Below, one piece after another: positions 7,601-37,708 of a stretch of 64,000 nt of DNA. Every line of letters begins with the position of its first letter. Positions within the stretch are counted from its first letter, which is position 1. The DNA is from Zootoca vivipara (Eukaryota). The position numbers and the translations under genes were made by a program. The DNA is taken from assembly GCF_963506605.1 (NCBI RefSeq), contig NC_083277.1:75888001-75952000 (forward strand). Reading direction: 5' to 3'. Under the pieces are notes generated by a model. The model saw only the letters and a program-made list of their open reading frames with translations. It was not told the DNA's origin and did no database searches.

Positions 7601-7748
7601 TCGCTGCCCACCTCCTCCAGCCCTAAAAAAAGGTCGGCAACTCTGGGAAAAGGGGGGCGCCGGAGGGATCTTTGCACCACAGTGCCAGATATGCTTAATA
7701 AAAAAATTCCTTCAGTAGCACCTTAAAGGCCAACTAAGTTTATATTTT

Positions 7749-7787
7749 GGTATGAGCTTTCGTGTGCATGCACACTTCTTCAGATAC
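7749..7787 (-). ncRNA. Minimal hammerhead ribozyme motif, inverted copy
   Basis: Reverse complement of the same motif; stem I shortened to 4 bp at the inversion junction. Confidence 0.65.
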
Positions 7788-7803
7788 GAAGAAGTATTCT
7801 TCA

Positions 7804-7843
7804 GGTATCTGAAGAAGTGTGCATGCACACGAAAGCTCATACC
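7804..7843 (+). ncRNA. Minimal type I hammerhead ribozyme motif, copy 1
   Basis: Stem I GGTAT/ATACC, core CTGAAGA(A), stem II GTGTGC/GCACAC, GAAA, palindromic stem III AGCT, predicted cleavage after TC at 7838. Confidence 0.75.
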
Positions 7844-7987
7844 AAAATATAAACTTAGTTGGTCTTTAAGGTGCTACTGAAGGAATTTTTTTATTTTGCT
7901 TCGACTCAGACCAACACAGCTACCTACCTGTAACTAGAACTATGGAAGGCACCACATTGAGCCGCATGAAATGGAAGTCCATCAACA

Positions 7988-8027
7988 GGTATCTGAAGAA
8001 GTGTGCATGCACACGAAAGCTCATACC
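7988..8027 (+). ncRNA. Minimal type I hammerhead ribozyme motif, copy 2
   Basis: Identical 40-nt motif to 7804-7843. Confidence 0.75.
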
Positions 8028-8519
8028 AAAATATAAACTTAGTTGGTCTTTAAGGTGCTACTGAAGGAATTTTTTTATTTTGCTTAGACTCAGACCAACA
8101 CGGCTACCTACCTGTAACTAGATATGCTTAAGACGGCCCTGTTTCCAGGTGTGTTGATTGTTGCTGAATTCATACAGTGTTGTTGTTTTTTAAACTGCTT
8201 TTCAAAGCACATTAGAACTTGTCTAATTAAAAACATGATTTACTAAGAATATACAGTTGCCATTTGTTTACTTTCAGCTCCGGTCCTTGCCTTTGTTTGC
8301 ATCTTCGCATTATCAAAGCTTAGATTATAAGCTTTTCTCTCATTCATTCATTCATTCATTCTTGTGTCACTCAGTAAAGCACCACTGATGACATCAATAT
8401 GTAGTGCAGGGGTGGTGAACCTGTGACCCTTCAGATATTGTTGAGACATCATATTATGAATATGGTAAACATATTTATATCATGACTTACAGTATGGATC
8501 AATCTTTCTGCATAATGAT

Positions 8520-25472: not shown

Positions 25473-28400
25473 TCAAACATTAAAAGCTTCCCTAAACAGG
25501 GCTGCCTTGAGATGCCTTCTAAAGGTCTGGTAATTGTTGTTCTCTTTGACCTCTAGTGGGAGGGCATTCCACAGGGTGGGTGCCACTACCGAGAAGGCCC
25601 TCTGCCTGGTTCCCTGTAACTTGGCTTCTCGTAGTGAGGGAACCGCCAGAAGGCCCTCGGAGCTGGACCTCAGTGTCCGGGCAGAACGATGGGGGTGGAG
25701 ACGCTCCTTCAGGTATACCGGACCGAGGCCGTTTAGGGCTTTAAAGGTCAACACCAACACTTTGAATTGTGCTCGGAAACGTACTGGGAGCCAATGTAGG
25801 TCTTTCAGGACCGGTGTTATGTGGTCTCGGCGGCCGCTCCCAGTCACCAGTCTAGCTGCCGCATTCTGGATTAGTTGTAGTTTCCGGGTCACCTTCAAAG
25901 GTAGCCCCACGTAGAGCGCATTGCAGTAGTCCAAGCGAGAGATAACTAGAGCATGCACCACTCTGGAGAGACAGTCAGTGGGCAGGTAGGGACTCAGCCT
26001 GCGTACCAGATGGAGCTGATAAACAGCTGTCTTGGACACAGAGTTGACCTGTGCCTCCATGGACAGCTGTGAGTCTAAGATGACTCCCAGGCTGCGCACC
26101 TGGTCTTTCAGGGGCACAGTTACCCCATTCAGGACCAGGGAGTCCTCCACACCCGCCCGCCTCCTGTCCCCCACAAACAGTACTTCTGTCTTGTCAGGAT
26201 TCAATCTCAATCTGTTAGCCGCCATCCATCCTCCAACCGCCTCCAAGCACTCACACAGGACCTTCACTGCCTTCACTGGTTCTGATTTAAAAGAGAGGTA
26301 GAGCTGGGTATCATCAGCATACTGATGGACACCCAGCCCAAACCCCCTGATGATCTCTCCCAGCGGCTGCATATAGATGTTAAAAAGCATGGGGGAGAGG
26401 ACAGAACCCTGAGGCACCCCACAAGTGAGAGCCCAGGGGTCTGAACACTCATCCCCCACCACCACTTTCTGAACACGGCCCAGGAGGAAGGAGCGGAACC
26501 ACTGCATGACAGTGCCCCCAGCTCCCAAACCCTCTAGACGATCCAGAAGGATGTTATGGTCGATGGTGTCAAAAGCCGCTGAGAGATCCAGCAGAACAAG
26601 GAAACAGCTCTTACCTTTGTCCCTAGCCCGCCGGAGATCATCGACCAGTGCGACCAAGGCAGTTTCAGTCCCATGATGAGGCCTGAATCCTGACTGGAAG
26701 GGATCCAAATGGTCCGCTTCTTCCAGGCGTGCCTGAAGTTGTTCAGCAACCACTCGCTCAACCACCTTGCCCAAGAATGGAAGATTTGAGACTGGGCGAT
26801 AGTTGGCCATATTGGCCGGATCTAAAGATGGTTTTTTAAGAAGCGGTTTAATAACCGCCTCTTTCAGCGGGTCTGGGAAGGCTCCTTCATGGAGAGAGCA
26901 TTTACCAACCCGCGAAGCCCATCGCCCAGCCCTTCCTGGCTAGCTTTTATAAGCCAGGATGGGCAAGGATCAAGGAGACAGGCGGTTGGTTTCACTCGTC
27001 GAAGCAGCCTGTCCACATCCTCGGAGGTAACAGATTGAAATTGATCCCACAAAACTTGACTAGACAGGACTCTAGCACTCCCCTGCCCCGGCCCTGCCCC
27101 CACGGTGGAGTCTACCTCTTTCCGAATCTGAGCGACTTTATCTGCAAAAAACTTTGCAAAATCATTGCAGGAGATCATGTGGCCCGTACTGGGCCCGGAT
27201 GGAGCAGGTGGTTCCGCTAAATTGCGAACCACCTGGAAGAGTCTCCTGCTGCTGTTTTCTGCAGATGCGATGGAGACGGTGAAGAAGGTCCTCTTCGCCG
27301 TCGCCATTGCCACTTGGTAGGCTCGAAGTTGAGCTCTAGCCCGTGTCCGGTCTGATTCAAAATGAGTTTTCCGCCACCGGCGCTCTAGCCGTCTCAACGA
27401 CTGTTTCATCGCCCTCAGCGCCGGGGAAAACCACGGGGCTGTCCGGGCTCCATGCAATCTGAGAGGGCGCTTCGGAGCCAGACAGTCAATAGCGCTGGTT
27501 AACTCCGCATTCCAGCGGGCCACCAGGGAATCAGCTGAAAGGCCATCGACATGGGATAAAACATCCCCTACCACTCTCTGGAAGCCAATTGGATCCATTA
27601 AGTAGCGGGGGCGGACCATCCGAATCGGTCCCACCTCCCTGCAGAGGGGAAGGGTTGCGGAGAAGTCCAGTTGCACCAGAAAGTGATCTGACCATGGCAC
27701 TTCTTTTGTTTCGCTTTTACTTAATGTCAGATCACCAACATCCATAGAGGTGAACACCAAGTCCAAGGCATGTCCGCGGCTATGAGTTGGGCCAGACTTA
27801 TTCAGGGACAGCCCCATGGTGGCCATGCTTTCCACGAAGTCCCGAGCGGCTCCTTGTAAGGTCGTGTCGGCATGGATGTTAAAATCCCCTAAGACAACCA
27901 AGCTAGGTGTCTCCAGGAGCACATCCGACACGACCTGAAGCAGCTCGGGCAGGGAATCCTTGGTGCAGCGGGGAGGTCGGTACACCAAAAGGAATCCTGT
28001 ACTGCCCCTATTGCCCAACTTCCAGAACATGCACTCAGAAAACTCCGTCTTACCAATAGGACGCCTGGTGCAAACTAATGACTTCCTAAAAATCACTGCA
28101 ACCCCCCCTCCCCGCCCAGATGGCCTGGGTTGCTGTGCATAAGAGAAACCTGGTGGACAAGCAGCGCCAAGAACGGGCCCATCGGCTTCATCCAACCAGG
28201 TCTCTGTCACACATGCCAGGTCAAATCTTCCATCCACAATCAGGTCGTGAATGGCAGTGGTCTTATTCATCATCGACCTGGCATTGCACAGCAGCACCTT
28301 CAGGTCATGTGGGTATCCCTTGCTGATTCCAATATCCGTCCGGTCAGGACCAGACCCGGAGGCAGGGATAGTCCTCAGACAACGACTAAGTCTGCCTCCT

Positions 28401-28504
28401 CGGTAATGACATGGTCTGGTCTTAGCGTAACTCCTCCTCCTACCCGTGACCACTGAGATCGGTTGTCCCAGTGCATCACCCCCTGTGGAATCTGCCCCAG
28501 CCAT
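25473..28504 (-). pseudogene. LINE ORF2 (endonuclease + reverse transcriptase), 1010 aa if a single 1-nt deletion near 26897 is restored
   Basis: ORFs 28615-26864 and 26810-25473 join as VNA[S]LHEGAFPDPLKEAVIKPLLKKPSLDPANMANYRPVSNL by adding one base; no other stops. Confidence 0.9.
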
Positions 28505-28984
28505 TTTGCTTGCTGGGACCCCCTCCCGAGCAGCCCTGACCCCTCCCCTTAAAAACAAAATAAAACCTCTGTAAAAACAGCAAAGAACAGAACAAAAGAA
28601 AAACACAAAAAACACAATAAAACAATAAAACCAAAAACAATAAAAATTACAAATACACTAAAATTTAACAGATTCCCACACCCGACTAAAAATCCCTCGC
28701 TAAAACCTATGTAAATCAAAAAATACAGTAAAACAATACAAAGACAGAAAATTACAAACTAAAATTGACCCCTCCCCTTAAAATCAAATTTAAAACCAAT
28801 ACAGAAAACAAACTAATGCAATAAAACAATACAAACAAAGACAGAAAATTACAAACTAAAATTAACCCCTCCCCTTAAAATCGAATTTAAAACCAATACA
28901 GAAAACAAACTAACAGACTAAACGATAAACAAAAACCAAAAACAATAAAAGTTACAAACACATCAGAATTACAAGAAAAGCAGC

Positions 28985-30370
28985 AGCGGCACTGTTTCAG
29001 GCCTCCTAGGAGCCTTAAAGCTGTGGTAGAGTATGGGTCCCGCCCCCGGGCCCAAGGTGGAAGTGGGCCTCAGGGGGAGCAGTCCTTCCAGTACTCACAG
29101 CAGCACTGATGTTCCAGGCCTCCCAGGAGCCTTAAAAGCTGTGGTGGAGTGGGGGACCCGCCCCAAGCCCCAGGTGGAAGTGGGCTTCAGGGGGAGCAGT
29201 CCTCCCAAACACTCCCTGGCAGAGCAGCAGCAGCAGCAATGTTCCAGGCCTCCCAGGAGCCTTAAAAGCTGTGGTGGAGTGGGGGACCCGCCCCAAGCCC
29301 CAGGTGGAAGTGGGCTTCAGGGGGAGCAGTCCTCCCAAACACTCCCTGGCAGAGCAGCAGCAGCAGCAATGTTCCCGGCCTCCCAGGAGCCTTAAAAGCT
29401 GTGGTGGAGTGGGGGACCCGCCCCAAGCCCAAGGTGGAAGTGGGCTTCAGGGGGAGCAGTCCTTCCAGTACTCACAGCAGCACTGATGTTCCAGGCCTCC
29501 CAGGAGCCTTAAAAGCTGTGGTGGAGTGGGGGACCCGCCCCAAGCCCCAGGTGGAAGTGGGATTCAGGGGGAGCAGTCCTCCCAAACACTCCCTGGCAGA
29601 GCAGCAGCAGCAGCAATGTTCCAGGCCTCCCAGGAGCCTTAAAAGCTGTGGTGGAGTGGGGGACCCGCCCCAAGCCCCAGGTGGAAGTGGGCTTCAGGGG
29701 GAGCAGTCCTCCCAAACACTCCCTGGCAGAGCAGCAGCAGCAGCAATGTTCCAGGCCTCCCAGGAGCCTTAAAAGCTGTGGTGGAGTGGGGGACCCGCCC
29801 CAAGCCCCAGGTGGAAGTGGGCTTCAGGGGGAGCAGTCCTCCCAAACACTCCCTGGCAGAGCAGCAGCAGCAGCAATGTTCCCGGCCTCCCAGGAGCCTT
29901 AAAAGCTGTGGTGGAGTGGGGGACCCGCCCCAAGCCCAAGGTGGAAGTGGGCTTCAGGGGGAGCAGTCCTTCCAGTACTCACAGCAGCACTGATGTTCCA
30001 GGCCTCCCAGGAGCCTTAAAAGCTGTGGTGGAGTGGGGGACCCGCCCCAAGCCCCAGGTGGAAGTGGGATTCAGGGGGAGCAGTCCTCCCAAACACTCCC
30101 TGGCAGAGCAGCAGCAGCAGCAATGTTCCAGGCCTCCCAGGAGCCTTAAAAGCTGTGGTGGAGTGGGGGACCCGCCCCAAGCCCCAGGTGGAAGTGGGCT
30201 TCAGGGGGAGCAGTCCTCCCAAACACTCCCTGGCAGAGCAGCAGCAGCAGCAATGTTCCAGGCCTCCCAGGAGCCTTAAAAGCTGTGGTGGAGTGGGGGA
30301 CCCGCCCCAAGCCCCAGGTGGAAGTGGGCTTCAGGGGGAGCAGTCCTCCCAAACACTCCCTGGCAGAGCA
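28985..30370. repeat. Tandem array of 130-bp (A) and 117-bp (B) GC-rich units with 507-bp higher-order period
   Basis: Unit starts near 28997(B, diverged), 29113(A), 29243(A), 29373(B), 29490(A), 29620(A), 29750(A), 29880(B), 29997(A), 30127(A), 30257(A, partial). Confidence 0.95.
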
Positions 30371-30589
30371 TATACTGTATATATACAGTATATTCCATCT
30401 GACTTCCTCTGAATATAGGGCCAGAGTTGTGGCCCTATGTTGAGGGTGAGTCAGTTAAATCACAGCCCACCATTATAAACAAGAAATCGGCCTCAGGTTT
30501 CTGAACTTCCATGGGTGCTGGCTTCAATGAGAACTTCTTTGGTGTTCCCGCACACTTTGGCACTCGTCACAGTGTCCCATTGCGTCAGA

Positions 30590-34072: not shown

Positions 34073-35555
34073 ATCGTGAGCTCCATTATGAAAAGGCCTG
34101 TGTTGTGCCCTCCTTGAGGATAATGGAAAGCTATGCAGCGCAACATGAGTGAATAGTTTTGCAGGGTGTGGGTTCACTTGCAGCTGACAAGACATATATT
34201 CACAAGAGGACTGAAGTTCTTTTGTTCTCCTGATGTTTGTATGGAAATGTGCACTGTGTGTCTGAACAACCCACCTTACTCGCCATCCTCATCAGTCAGC
34301 ACTTTGGAATTCACCTTGCGGCCAGTGCTGCTGATAGCTTGCTCCCTGTGGCAAGAATTTGCCTTATAAAAACCTGGAGCTTTGCGGTGAAGCTACCTGA
34401 GTCAGATTGTGACTCACAGCAAAGCTTATGTGGCTCATGCTTGTTACTGATGCAGAATCTCTGCATGCTAACTATAGCGCTGAAATGAAGCACCTCTTCC
34501 TCGGCAGATGGCTGCCAGGGTATGGAGTCAACCTCTGTTCAGCTTCTAGCTGCAAACTGACTGGCCACATACCCATTGCAAAAAAAGAGGAAATAAACAA
34601 AATCCACCATCCAAAAATTAGGACAAAGGAGGACTCTGATTTGCACAAAAATTGCATTTGCTAACTTATTTCTATAGATGCAAGTGTAGAAATAAATTAC
34701 TATAACTTAAATAGAAATACAATACATTTCTCCATTGAGGGGAAGGCAGTGACTCATTTGGCTGCTCAATCAGCTGGCCAGCTGCTAACTGTTGATGGCC
34801 AACTTCATGGCCCCCCCGATCTCCCTTCTTATAGTTCTTTGTCTTCAAACTGAACTTCAGCAAAGGAATTCAATTAGAGGACTGTCATTTGTGCTACTTA
34901 CCAAATTCTCACTTGGACGGTCTTGCACATAGGAGCAGTGGTGCATTGCTTAGACCTAAATGACTGGATATCTGGGTAAGGCCAAGGCTTTACATGACAA
35001 GCAAAGTTTCCTCATGAAACTGGCTTCTGTATTGCAAAGTGCCCTCAAGTATAAAGAGGGGACTTGTGTATCCAGACAGTTTTTGGGATGTGCCAGGGAG
35101 TTCTGTGGCAACTGCTTATCCCTGACTTGTGGCCACAATGTATCCCAGAGTGTTTGGAGATGCTCTCCATCCCATAATACATACTAACCCTGTCCCCCTC
35201 CCCCATGGTAGAACAATGGCTTCTGTTGTTCCCTGGGACACTCAGTAGGCCCTTGGTTGCAATTAGGACCGCATCACATCCTCTCTTTATGGCAAATGCA
35301 TCTTATAAATTATGAATCTTGGCTTACAGGAAGCCTTGGGGCTGTGCACTTCCAGTATCCTCATAATGACACCGAAGAAAGAGATAAAGATAGATTATCA
35401 GGATATATCCAACTCCAAAGGGCGTGCTCTGAGCTTAGTGGGCCTTGAGGCTGGAAGATTTTAGAGAAACCTGAGTGAGTGATCTTGCCTAATGGCTTGG
35501 TGCCGTTCTCTCTCGTTCTTCTTTTTAACTAAATCCAAGCACCAGGAATGGCTAT

Positions 35556-35972
35556 TGTGAGGGACAAGGGATACAGGGAAGTCCCTCCCATCTTAAGTTC
35601 CAGCCCATCCCCAAGCGCTGGAGAGAGTAAGGAGAGCTCTGCCTCCAGCGGAGAGTCAGGAAGTGGTGTCCGAGGCTCAGGCAAGGTTGTGGAGCCCATG
35701 CCTCAGGTGGGGCAGGAAGTTGGGCGCACGGGGGGAAGGCCAATCCCCCCAACTCCCGAATTGCGATGCAAACGTAGGGGGAAGAGGTTGGGTCTCCCAA
35801 AGCTTTTGTGCTGGAAGAAAACGCGCCAATCGCCATTCGGAGGTTCTGACACCTCACCTTAAGCATGTATATAGATCGTTCTGACCACTGTAAATAATCA
35901 GCACTTAATAAAAGCCTAAAAAGACTATGCTGGAGTCGTTACTCTAGAGTAGCCACATCAGGCCCTCTGACA
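35556..35972 (+). repeat. 5' LTR
   Basis: TGTGAGGGAC...CTCTGACA; AATAAA at 35907-35912; differs from the 3' LTR at 2 positions by eye. Confidence 0.95.
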
Positions 35973-36013
35973 GCAACCTCCGAATCTTTTTTTGGCTACT
36001 TTGGAGTGCCGCG

Positions 36014-36787
36014 ATGAGCGCGCAAGAGGCTGAGCATTGGAGGCTGGAGGCCGAAGCGGTGAAGCAGGAGATACGGAACCTGACAGCGCAGGCCCAGCAG
36101 CAATTGCATGCCGCTCAGGAGGAAGCGCGCGGGGCGCAGGAGGAGCTGAACAGGCTGGCACTGCCGGAGGACATGAGGGTGCACCCAGTGTTTCATAGAT
36201 CGCTGCTGTCGCCGTACAGAGAAAGTACCAGGTTCAGGGACAGCGATCAGCCTCCAGAGGGAGGAGGGGAAAGGGGAGAGACCCAGCAACTCAATGAGGC
36301 AACTGAGATTTTAGATTCAAGGAGAGGGGTGAGAGGGCTGGAGTACCTCATGGCATGGGAGGACACTCCGCCGTCCCACAATGAGTGGATACCGGCCACG
36401 GAAGTACAAGAGGAATTTTTAGTGGAAGAGTTCCATGCCCTTTTCCCCCACAGGCCCAAGCCCTGGCACATGGAAAGGGAGGGAGAGGGGGAGGAAGGGA
36501 GGAAGGGATCGCAGGCAGCAGCTCTCCATGGAGATGGGAAGCGGAATTTGAGGATACGGAAGAAGAGGTGTGGGTTTCACCGAGGTCGACTACGTCAGAG
36601 GCAGGAGAGGACTGGCAGAACATTTTTACTCCCACCAGTTCTGACGCCACAGACTTTTTGGGATTCCCGTCTTCTCAGGGGGAGGGGGAAAGATCGCAGG
36701 ATTGGGGAAAATTTTTTACACCCACAGGCTCTGATGCCACAGACTTCTTGGGGTTTCACTCGTCCCCAGCAAGCAGAGAGCCCCTAG
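36014..36787 (+). CDS. Retroelement ORF: coiled-coil (probable Gag N-terminus) fused to integrase C-terminal tail and chromodomain; C-terminal part probably out of its ancestral frame
   Basis: ATG 42 nt after the LTR; heptad-rich aa 1-46; RLALPEDMRVHPVFHRSLLSPY (integrase tail); ILDSRR..LEYLMAWED..SHNEWIP..V..FH (chromodomain, ~36293-36448). Confidence 0.7.
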   Translation: MSAQEAEHWRLEAEAVKQEIRNLTAQAQQQLHAAQEEARGAQEELNRLALPEDMRVHPVFHRSLLSPYRESTRFRDSDQPPEGGGERGETQQLNEATEILDSRRGVRGLEYLMAWEDTPPSHNEWIPATEVQEEFLVEEFHALFPHRPKPWHMEREGEGEEGRKGSQAAALHGDGKRNLRIRKKRCGFHRGRLRQRQERTGRTFLLPPVLTPQTFWDSRLLRGRGKDRRIGENFLHPQALMPQTSWGFTRPQQAESP

Positions 36788-36821
36788 GGAGGGGGGGAGA
36801 GGAGCCTGGGAGGGGGGTGGA

Positions 36822-37238
36822 TGTGAGGGACAAGGGATACAGGGAAGTCCCTCCCATCTTAAGTTCCAGCCCATCCCCAAGCGCTGGAGAGAGTAAGGAG
36901 AGCTCTGCCTCCAGCGGAGAGTCAGGAAGTGGTGTCCGAGGCTCAGGCAAGGTTGTGGAGCCCATGCCTCAGGTGGGGCAGGAAGTTGGGCGCACGGGGG
37001 GAAGGCCAATCCCCCCAACTCCCGAATTGCGACGCAAATGTAGGGGGAAGAGGTTGGGTCTCCCAAAGCTTTTGTGCTGGAAGAAAACGCGCCAATCGCC
37101 ATTCGGAGGTTCTGACACCTCACCTTAAGCATGTATATAGATCGTTCTGACCACTGTAAATAATCAGCACTTAATAAAAGCCTAAAAAGACTATGCTGGA
37201 GTCGTTACTCTAGAGTAGCCACATCAGGCCCTCTGACA
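36822..37238 (+). repeat. 3' LTR
   Basis: Direct repeat of 35556-35972, offset 1266 bp. Confidence 0.95.
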
Positions 37239-37708
37239 GCTATCCTGTGCTGGATAGAAATAAAGGTTCGATAGAGTGGTCCAGGGATGAGGAAGGCACA
37301 AGAAAGTGTAATGCTCCCACTTCCACTCAGCCTAAATCAAGCACTTCTAAGTCCCATTAAACTCCCCCCATGTTAAGTATGTTTGTGGTTCTCCCATGTT
37401 GAAATCAATGGGACTTGAAAGGGTGAAGCGCTTCATTTTCGCTCAATGAGGCCCCAACTTTGTAACAATTCTTGCTTCATAAAATGCATGTCACAATCCC
37501 ATTAGGTGGGATACGTACCCTGTCTTCTTTTCCTTTTTGTAAAAGCAGTTGCCTGCTTGCGGATCTCTGGTGTGGAATAGTGTGTGATGCTTGAATCTTA
37601 AGGCTGCATCAGCCCACCTGTTCTAAGAATACTGAATGTATTATTGCCTTAATGCTTTGGGCAACAAGAACAAAAGAGAGTAGAATTGGGGAAATAAGGC
37701 ATCTCTTG

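Follow-up and report, generated by a model that had tools for sequence, protein, structure and literature searches.

Likely Tf1-style self-priming in a young chromovirus family of the lizard Zootoca vivipara

A deleted chromovirus copy and the complement within its LTR

How is reverse transcription primed in an LTR element whose 5′ LTR is not followed by a tRNA-type primer-binding site (PBS)? In retroviruses, the primer is a tRNA that matches 18 nt beginning with TGG, and no TGG follows the 5′ LTR of an element that we studied in a 64,000-nt stretch of the Zootoca vivipara genome (GCF_963506605.1, NC_083277.1, positions 75,888,001–75,952,000, forward strand). This whole analyzed stretch is called the window; positions are given in window numbering, and the features of the element lie on the plus strand. 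The first-pass annotation of this DNA had pointed out the missing TGG and had claimed instead an exact 11-nt complement within the LTR, upstream of AATAAA at 35907, all of which is borne out by the sequence. The PBS, AACCTCCGAAT at 35975–35985, is the exact reverse complement of ATTCGGAGGTT at 35835–35845, the resulting helix is exactly 11 bp long with C/C mismatches flanking both ends (35834/35986 and 35846/35974), and the polyadenylation signal AATAAA is located at 35907–35912. The expected number of occurrences of this exact 11-mer in 417 nt is 7e-5.

The element itself (35556–37238) is a young Ty3/gypsy chromovirus copy with an internal deletion and displays the hallmarks of this group, namely TG...CA LTRs of 417 bp, a 5-bp target-site duplication (GCTAT, 35551–35555 and 37239–37243) and a polypurine tract, which together with 4 further nt precedes the 3′ LTR (36808–36821). 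The 5′ LTR (35556–35972) and the 3′ LTR (36822–37238, with a second copy of the primer at 37101–37111) differ at two positions, both CpG transitions, and a 2-nt spacer, GC (35973–35974), which the first-pass annotation had passed over, separates the 5′ LTR from the PBS. The interior of only 849 bp consists of the first 186 nt of the family interior joined to its last 671 nt via an 8-nt microhomology (36151–36158), and ~4.1 kb of gag-pol is absent. What is left is a 257-codon frame (36014–36787) that fuses the start of gag to the tail of the integrase and carries a fragment of SH3_Tf2-1 and a chromodomain at ~36299–36436. As the window copy has no reverse transcriptase (RT), its replication would have depended on full-length relatives for enzymes, unless the middle part was lost after insertion. 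In an exact-match search, the deletion junction had a single match genome-wide, and we discarded the idea that the copy belongs to a non-autonomous subfamily.

In the fission yeast element Tf1, the 5′ end of the RNA itself serves as the primer: its first 11 nt anneal to the PBS and are cut off by RNase H after nucleotide 11, and the released fragment primes the minus strand, as described in the accessible parts of PMC7175516. By likeness to Tf1, we consider it highly probable that the lizard family primes reverse transcription from its own RNA in the same manner, and each biochemical step is modeled on that element. Transcription would begin at A35835, making 35835–35845 the predicted first 11 nt of the RNA and the predicted self-primer; these nucleotides would pair with the PBS, braced by a helix between U5 and the leader; the element-encoded RNase H, the domain of which is present in full-length relatives, would cleave after nucleotide 11; and the freed 3′ OH would prime minus-strand DNA. 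During plus-strand synthesis, the primer would be copied into a new PBS, and about two replication rounds would suffice for a change in the LTR primer to appear in the PBS.

Covariation of primer and PBS among subfamilies and families

The family has well over a thousand LTR-PBS junctions in this genome. Our counts rest on fetched loci that were picked by a PBS pattern or by their likeness to the window, and the LTR site lay outside these patterns. Among the 30 loci closest to the window, 29 pair exactly and one has a mismatch. In one RNA-seq run, two letters inside the LTR 11-mer were swapped in 22 of 49 reads; the PBS predicted from this swap is found at 244 places in the genome, compared with 587 for the window-type PBS, and all fetched loci found only by this two-letter PBS variant (30/30) carry the swapped LTR 11-mer 138 nt from the LTR end. 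Searches with the RT and with further patterns added the types C, D and E, the last with 40 places. What had looked like a private compensated mutation in locus L107 turned out to be a 40-copy subfamily, namely type E.

Altogether, the family has five PBS sequences, each of which is matched by its own LTR variant. The fetched family loci yielded 152 distinct LTR-PBS junctions, of which 143 pair at 11 of 11 positions (57 of type A, 33 of type B, 32 of type C, 16 of type E and 5 of type D), six have a single mismatch, in each case due to one transition, and three were unreadable. Thus, the pairing is exact at 143 of the 149 readable junctions, and the covariation that the first-pass annotation had proposed to look for across copies is indeed present. 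The primer positions that vary among the types are 2, 4, 7, 8 and 11, with changes on both sides of the helix. In a set of 15 representatives of types A to D, 165 of 165 primer cells pair, and at four of the 11 pairs both sides are changed; the covariation score of 0.170 (0.093 when shuffled) was reached by none of 500 shuffles, and the count of four both-side-changed pairs was reached by 29 of 500. The five variants correspond to about four or five evolutionary events and not to 143 independent ones. With regard to their distribution, the 40 copies nearest to the window's subfamily cluster on contigs C9 and C18, and copies of types B and C are scattered across the contigs that come first in the list.

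The same geometry recurs in other chromovirus families of this genome. In a second family, whose RT is about 60% identical, the spacer is again GC and the PBS that follows it is unrelated; nine of ten parsed loci carry an exact complement to this PBS of 11–12 nt, the remaining one having 10 nt. This complement sits 127–145 nt from the LTR end, with a TATA-like box ~30 nt upstream. In a third, older family (RT about 50%, spacer GT), a complement of 10–11 nt was found ~30 nt below a TATA-like box in two of the nine loci examined; in one more, the old locus L115, the PBS is present and no upstream complement was found, and the other loci of the nine were not parsable. Outside the parsed set stand six old loci without the ACA-GC end, five loci without an LTR pair, and L038 and L135, two unparsed loci of the window's family. 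These two families, each with its own self-complementary PBS, are represented by L099–L104, L106, L112, L117 and L118 and by L110 and L113, and the PBS of the second family contains a near-palindrome.

These data bear on two alternatives. The first is that the complement arose by chance and was simply inherited by descent within a repeat family. Complements of at least 11 nt between the LTR and the 25 nt 3′ of it do arise in 7 of 1500 dinucleotide-shuffled LTRs (~0.5%), and the folding energy of the whole leader is not unusual compared with shuffled sequences (z −1.37). Chance inheritance is nevertheless already refuted by the existence of compensated variants, with both-side changes at five primer positions across subfamilies, and the other families present the same geometry with unrelated letters; we assign this explanation a negligible probability.

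In the second alternative, the partner of the PBS is a host tRNA, a tRNA half or some other small RNA, and the complement in the LTR is secondary. According to the accessible text of PMC6317226, some LTR elements use tRNA halves and lack a TGG PBS, and the tRNA set available for our comparison was a partial one, comprising 24 distinct genes that came from 30 loci and represent 10 anticodon types. The PBS is not of the CCA type with its TGG, and within this set the longest tRNA complement to any of six junction variants is 6 nt; the comparison with host tRNAs suggested by the first-pass annotation thus did not refute its proposal. The stronger argument against a tRNA primer is that the PBS tracks the element's own LTR, in five variants within the family as well as in the two unrelated PBSs of the sister families, whereas a host RNA would keep the PBS constant. 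A host-derived primer therefore appears very unlikely, and priming from the element's own RNA is the reading that we pursue.

If self-priming operates as in Tf1, the tight covariation would follow from the replication cycle itself because plus-strand synthesis would rewrite the PBS from the primer, and with a PBS rewritten in each cycle compensated variants would be easy to gain. According to the accessible part of PMC11042837, the cDNA of Tf1 retains the reverse-transcribed PBS at its 3′ end. We tentatively suggest that primer variants may spread in the family in this manner, with no second mutation, and that type B possibly originated in one step through a template switch from the U3 stretch at 35751–35766, which in the window copy is a partial complement of the primer site and the five nt preceding it. 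The PBS of type B equals the first 11 nt of this stretch (35751–35761), the segment from which the switch may have occurred. As an inverted repeat, the primer region and U3 35751–35766 match at 15 of 16 positions in type B, at 12 of 16 in type A (L031) and at 8 of 16 in types C and D. A conserved U3 hairpin that would act as an ‘anti-primer’ by hiding the 3′ copy of the primer was also considered and rejected, since the 15/16 match is found solely in type B and covariation with the primer is missing in types C and D.

RNA structure around the PBS and the predicted start site

When the primer and the PBS were held aside in folding, U5 (35940–35955) paired with the leader (35993–36008) and enclosed the PBS in nine of ten constrained folds. 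This predicted 16-bp helix would be the second duplex of a Tf1-type ‘pretzel’. Its longest length is 15–17 bp in the four family members tested (4/4), which was reached by 0–1 of 300 shuffles; it shows three one-sided changes and no two-sided ones. In the second family, the corresponding helix has 9 and 6 bp, not above shuffles. A 4-bp U5 hairpin predicted immediately 5′ of the PBS (35958–35970) is a weak candidate for the third duplex, which is 3–5 bp long among the copies and absent in 4 of 10. In unconstrained folds, the primer helix was dominant in 10 of 15 representatives. The primer helix and the U5/leader helix together form a pseudoknot, and the folding program cannot hold both at once; as modeled, the helices are in keeping with two of the three ‘pretzel’ duplexes described for Tf1 (bioRxiv 10.1101/2022.12.06.519325).

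This arrangement also resembles that of retroviruses, in which U5 and the leader are paired immediately 3′ of the PBS (U5-leader, U5-IR) and a small hairpin lies 5′ of the PBS; in the lizard family, too, a U5 stretch is predicted to pair with the leader 3′ of the PBS, next to a small hairpin on its 5′ side. Unlike in retroviruses, the primer is predicted to derive from the RNA of the element and not from a tRNA. The likeness of Tf1 to U5-IR appears in a title cited by PMC7175516, as far as the accessible part of that paper goes.

Where, then, does transcription start? A C at −1 and an A at +1 of the predicted start are present in 148 of the 149 readable copies, and this C-A step presumably fits the initiator consensus. 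In the window's family, no TATA was found at −30 from the predicted start. A CCAAT motif (35826–35830) lies directly upstream of it in the window copy and reads CCAAA in other subfamilies; we treat it as a candidate element only. Another candidate, a TATA-like stretch 3′ of the primer and within the predicted R region (35868–35874), occurs in part of the type-A copies and is lacking in all 34 copies of type B, for which reason it was rejected as the core promoter of the family. Read naively, the CCAAT and the TATA-like stretch of the window copy would place a start 3′ of the primer, near 35897.

We also inspected RNA-seq data from three runs of the same species, all from one study, of each of which about 6% was read. 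On the window stretch, 6, 15 and 156 reads were mapped, with one pile at 35853, and the 5′ LTR and leader of another copy (L086:1514–1940) received 391, 315 and 905 reads. The reads were mostly read-through from flanking DNA via U3, no pile of 5′ ends was seen at the predicted start, and in one run sense reads covered U5, the PBS and gag. At the L086 LTR, most sense reads enter U3 from unrelated flanks and fade toward AATAAA, which suggests that many LTR copies terminate host or read-through transcripts.

A third alternative takes up these points and accepts the pairing as functional, though not as that of a 5′-end primer. Transcription would start upstream or at ~35897, and the helix would serve packaging or strand transfer, or the primer would be cut from the interior of the RNA or from the 3′ copy of R. 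The RNA-seq without an end pile at the predicted start, the family's lack of a TATA at −30 and the pair of CCAAT and TATA-like motifs in the window copy speak for it. Against it, the helix begins at the C-A step and is exactly 11 bp long in five variants, as in Tf1, the second and third families have a TATA-like box ~30 nt upstream of the complement, and the downstream TATA-like stretch is missing throughout type B. We judge this alternative improbable and retain a start at A35835, which we infer from Tf1.

The downstream TATA-like stretch might have another role. Tf2 is regulated through a start that lies further downstream and leaves out the self-primer (PMC5341516, accessible part). A similar start without the primer could arise from the box within R in some type-A copies, a suggestion we make with the same reserve as that of PBS rewriting; if it is true, this box would be a vertebrate counterpart of the start-site control of Tf2.

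Full-length relatives and comparison with known self-priming elements

Full-length relatives of the window copy are ~5.8 kb long. Their gag matches Retrotrans_gag, Ty3_capsid and DUF4939, contains a CCHC motif in most copies and gave no match when compared with solved structures; the order of the pol domains is PR-RT-RH-IN-SH3_Tf2-chromo (L034, L035), with chromodomain scores of 23.6–26.6 bits around the Pfam cut-off of 25.1. Of the 25 copies in which the frames of gag and pol are both callable, 16 have pol in the −1 frame relative to gag and the other nine are out of step, presumably through indels; the slippery site GGGAAAC was present in both gag-pol overlaps examined (2/2). A +1 frameshift hinted at by L031 and L034 was not general among the copies and was dismissed. 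In L101, L102 and L131, gag and pol form a single open frame of 1653–1692 codons; these loci have relatives with a −1 shift.

The nearest database proteins are from lizard elements and are 62–68% identical. In an RT-RH tree of 35 sequences (30 labelled ones of the 120 matches listed and five from this genome, midpoint rooted), the family falls into a squamate clade (98/95) within a vertebrate clade (100/99), next to elements from lizard, snake, frog and fish; two fungal elements adjoin the vertebrate clade, and plant and algal ones stand apart. The tree contained no named Tf1, sushi-ichi, Amn or V-clade sequences, and its placement of the family in the cluster of fungal and vertebrate elements is tentative. 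The identity as a chromodomain Ty3/gypsy element of a vertebrate clade beside fungal elements, the covariation and the tRNA comparison together support the tRNA-independent priming of the Tf1/sushi kind that the first-pass annotation had proposed.

As a hallmark of the Tf1/sushi group, including its vertebrate members, self-priming has already been published, and it is well supported that the lizard family adds a member to this known group rather than a new mechanism. The sources cited for self-priming across the group are said to be Butler et al. 2001 and Lin and Levin 1997, and there is reportedly a 2009 paper on an Anolis chromovirus. Our literature search, which had most subscription papers outside its reach, found no paper on self-priming in a lizard family or on covariation of primer and PBS among subfamilies. 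In their accessible parts, several of PMC6317226, PMC3601003, PMC4600332, PMC7175516, PMC2864245, PMC5341516, PMC11042837 and bioRxiv 10.1101/2022.12.06.519325 present self-priming as a shared trait of the Tf1/sushi elements, and self-priming together with the pretzel is described as common to those of fungi and vertebrates (PMC6317226, PMC7175516 and bioRxiv 10.1101/2022.12.06.519325, likewise in part). Experimental demonstration is confined to Tf1 of fission yeast, and for vertebrate chromoviruses self-priming is a prediction from sequence, to judge from the available portions of PMC6317226, PMC4600332 and bioRxiv 10.1101/2022.12.06.519325.

The founding self-priming chromoviruses are Tf1 and Tf2 of Schizosaccharomyces pombe, to which Tj1, Tosmo1-3 and Tcry1 are added (PMC7175516, PMC4600332 and bioRxiv 10.1101/2022.12.06.519325, as far as accessible). 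Like Tf1 and Tf2, the lizard family has an 11-nt PBS complementary to a site in the LTR, no tRNA PBS, an integrase with a chromodomain, the Pfam domain SH3_Tf2-1 and a predicted extra duplex between a stretch adjacent to the PBS and the LTR downstream of the primer. Unlike Tf1, it lacks a TATA at −30, has a 2-nt spacer between LTR and PBS and a weak third duplex; furthermore, the start site, RNase H cut and structure of Tf1 are experimental, whereas the lizard family is known from its sequence. Fission yeast elements have no CCHC and possess one ORF or an in-frame stop, and members of the Tf1/sushi group from elsewhere have a −1 gag-pol frameshift and a CCHC gag (bioRxiv 10.1101/2022.12.06.519325, accessible text). 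With its CCHC gag and its pol in the −1 frame, the lizard family differs from the fission yeast elements and agrees with vertebrate chromoviruses, which it also resembles in the predicted self-priming and in two of the predicted pretzel duplexes; it is a separate squamate family. With its five co-varying primer variants and a start predicted to the nucleotide, the family offers unusually clean comparative support and an easily testable 5′ end in a reptile and, if the PBS is indeed rewritten from the primer, it would be a natural record of the copying of primer to PBS in a vertebrate.

Some elements of the family are arranged in tandem and share one LTR (L057, L069, L210); at 3 of 147 junctions, the LTR is immediately preceded by the polypurine tract, and LTR-PBS junctions occur at a spacing of about 5.39 kb, for instance at G000:C2:16765332, 16770717 and 16776100. 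These tandems resemble the integrase-independent tandem insertions of Tf1 (PMC11042837, accessible part); unequal crossing-over would equally yield tandems with a shared LTR. Elsewhere in the window, a LINE-type element (25473–30411) has endonuclease and RT frames in minus-strand ORFs at 26864–28657 and 25473–26939, beside which ten tandem copies of a 130/117-nt unit are located at 28968–30411. Finally, a short repeat at 7690–8122 is present in direct and inverted copies that are 96–99% alike, with some arms 17 nt apart.
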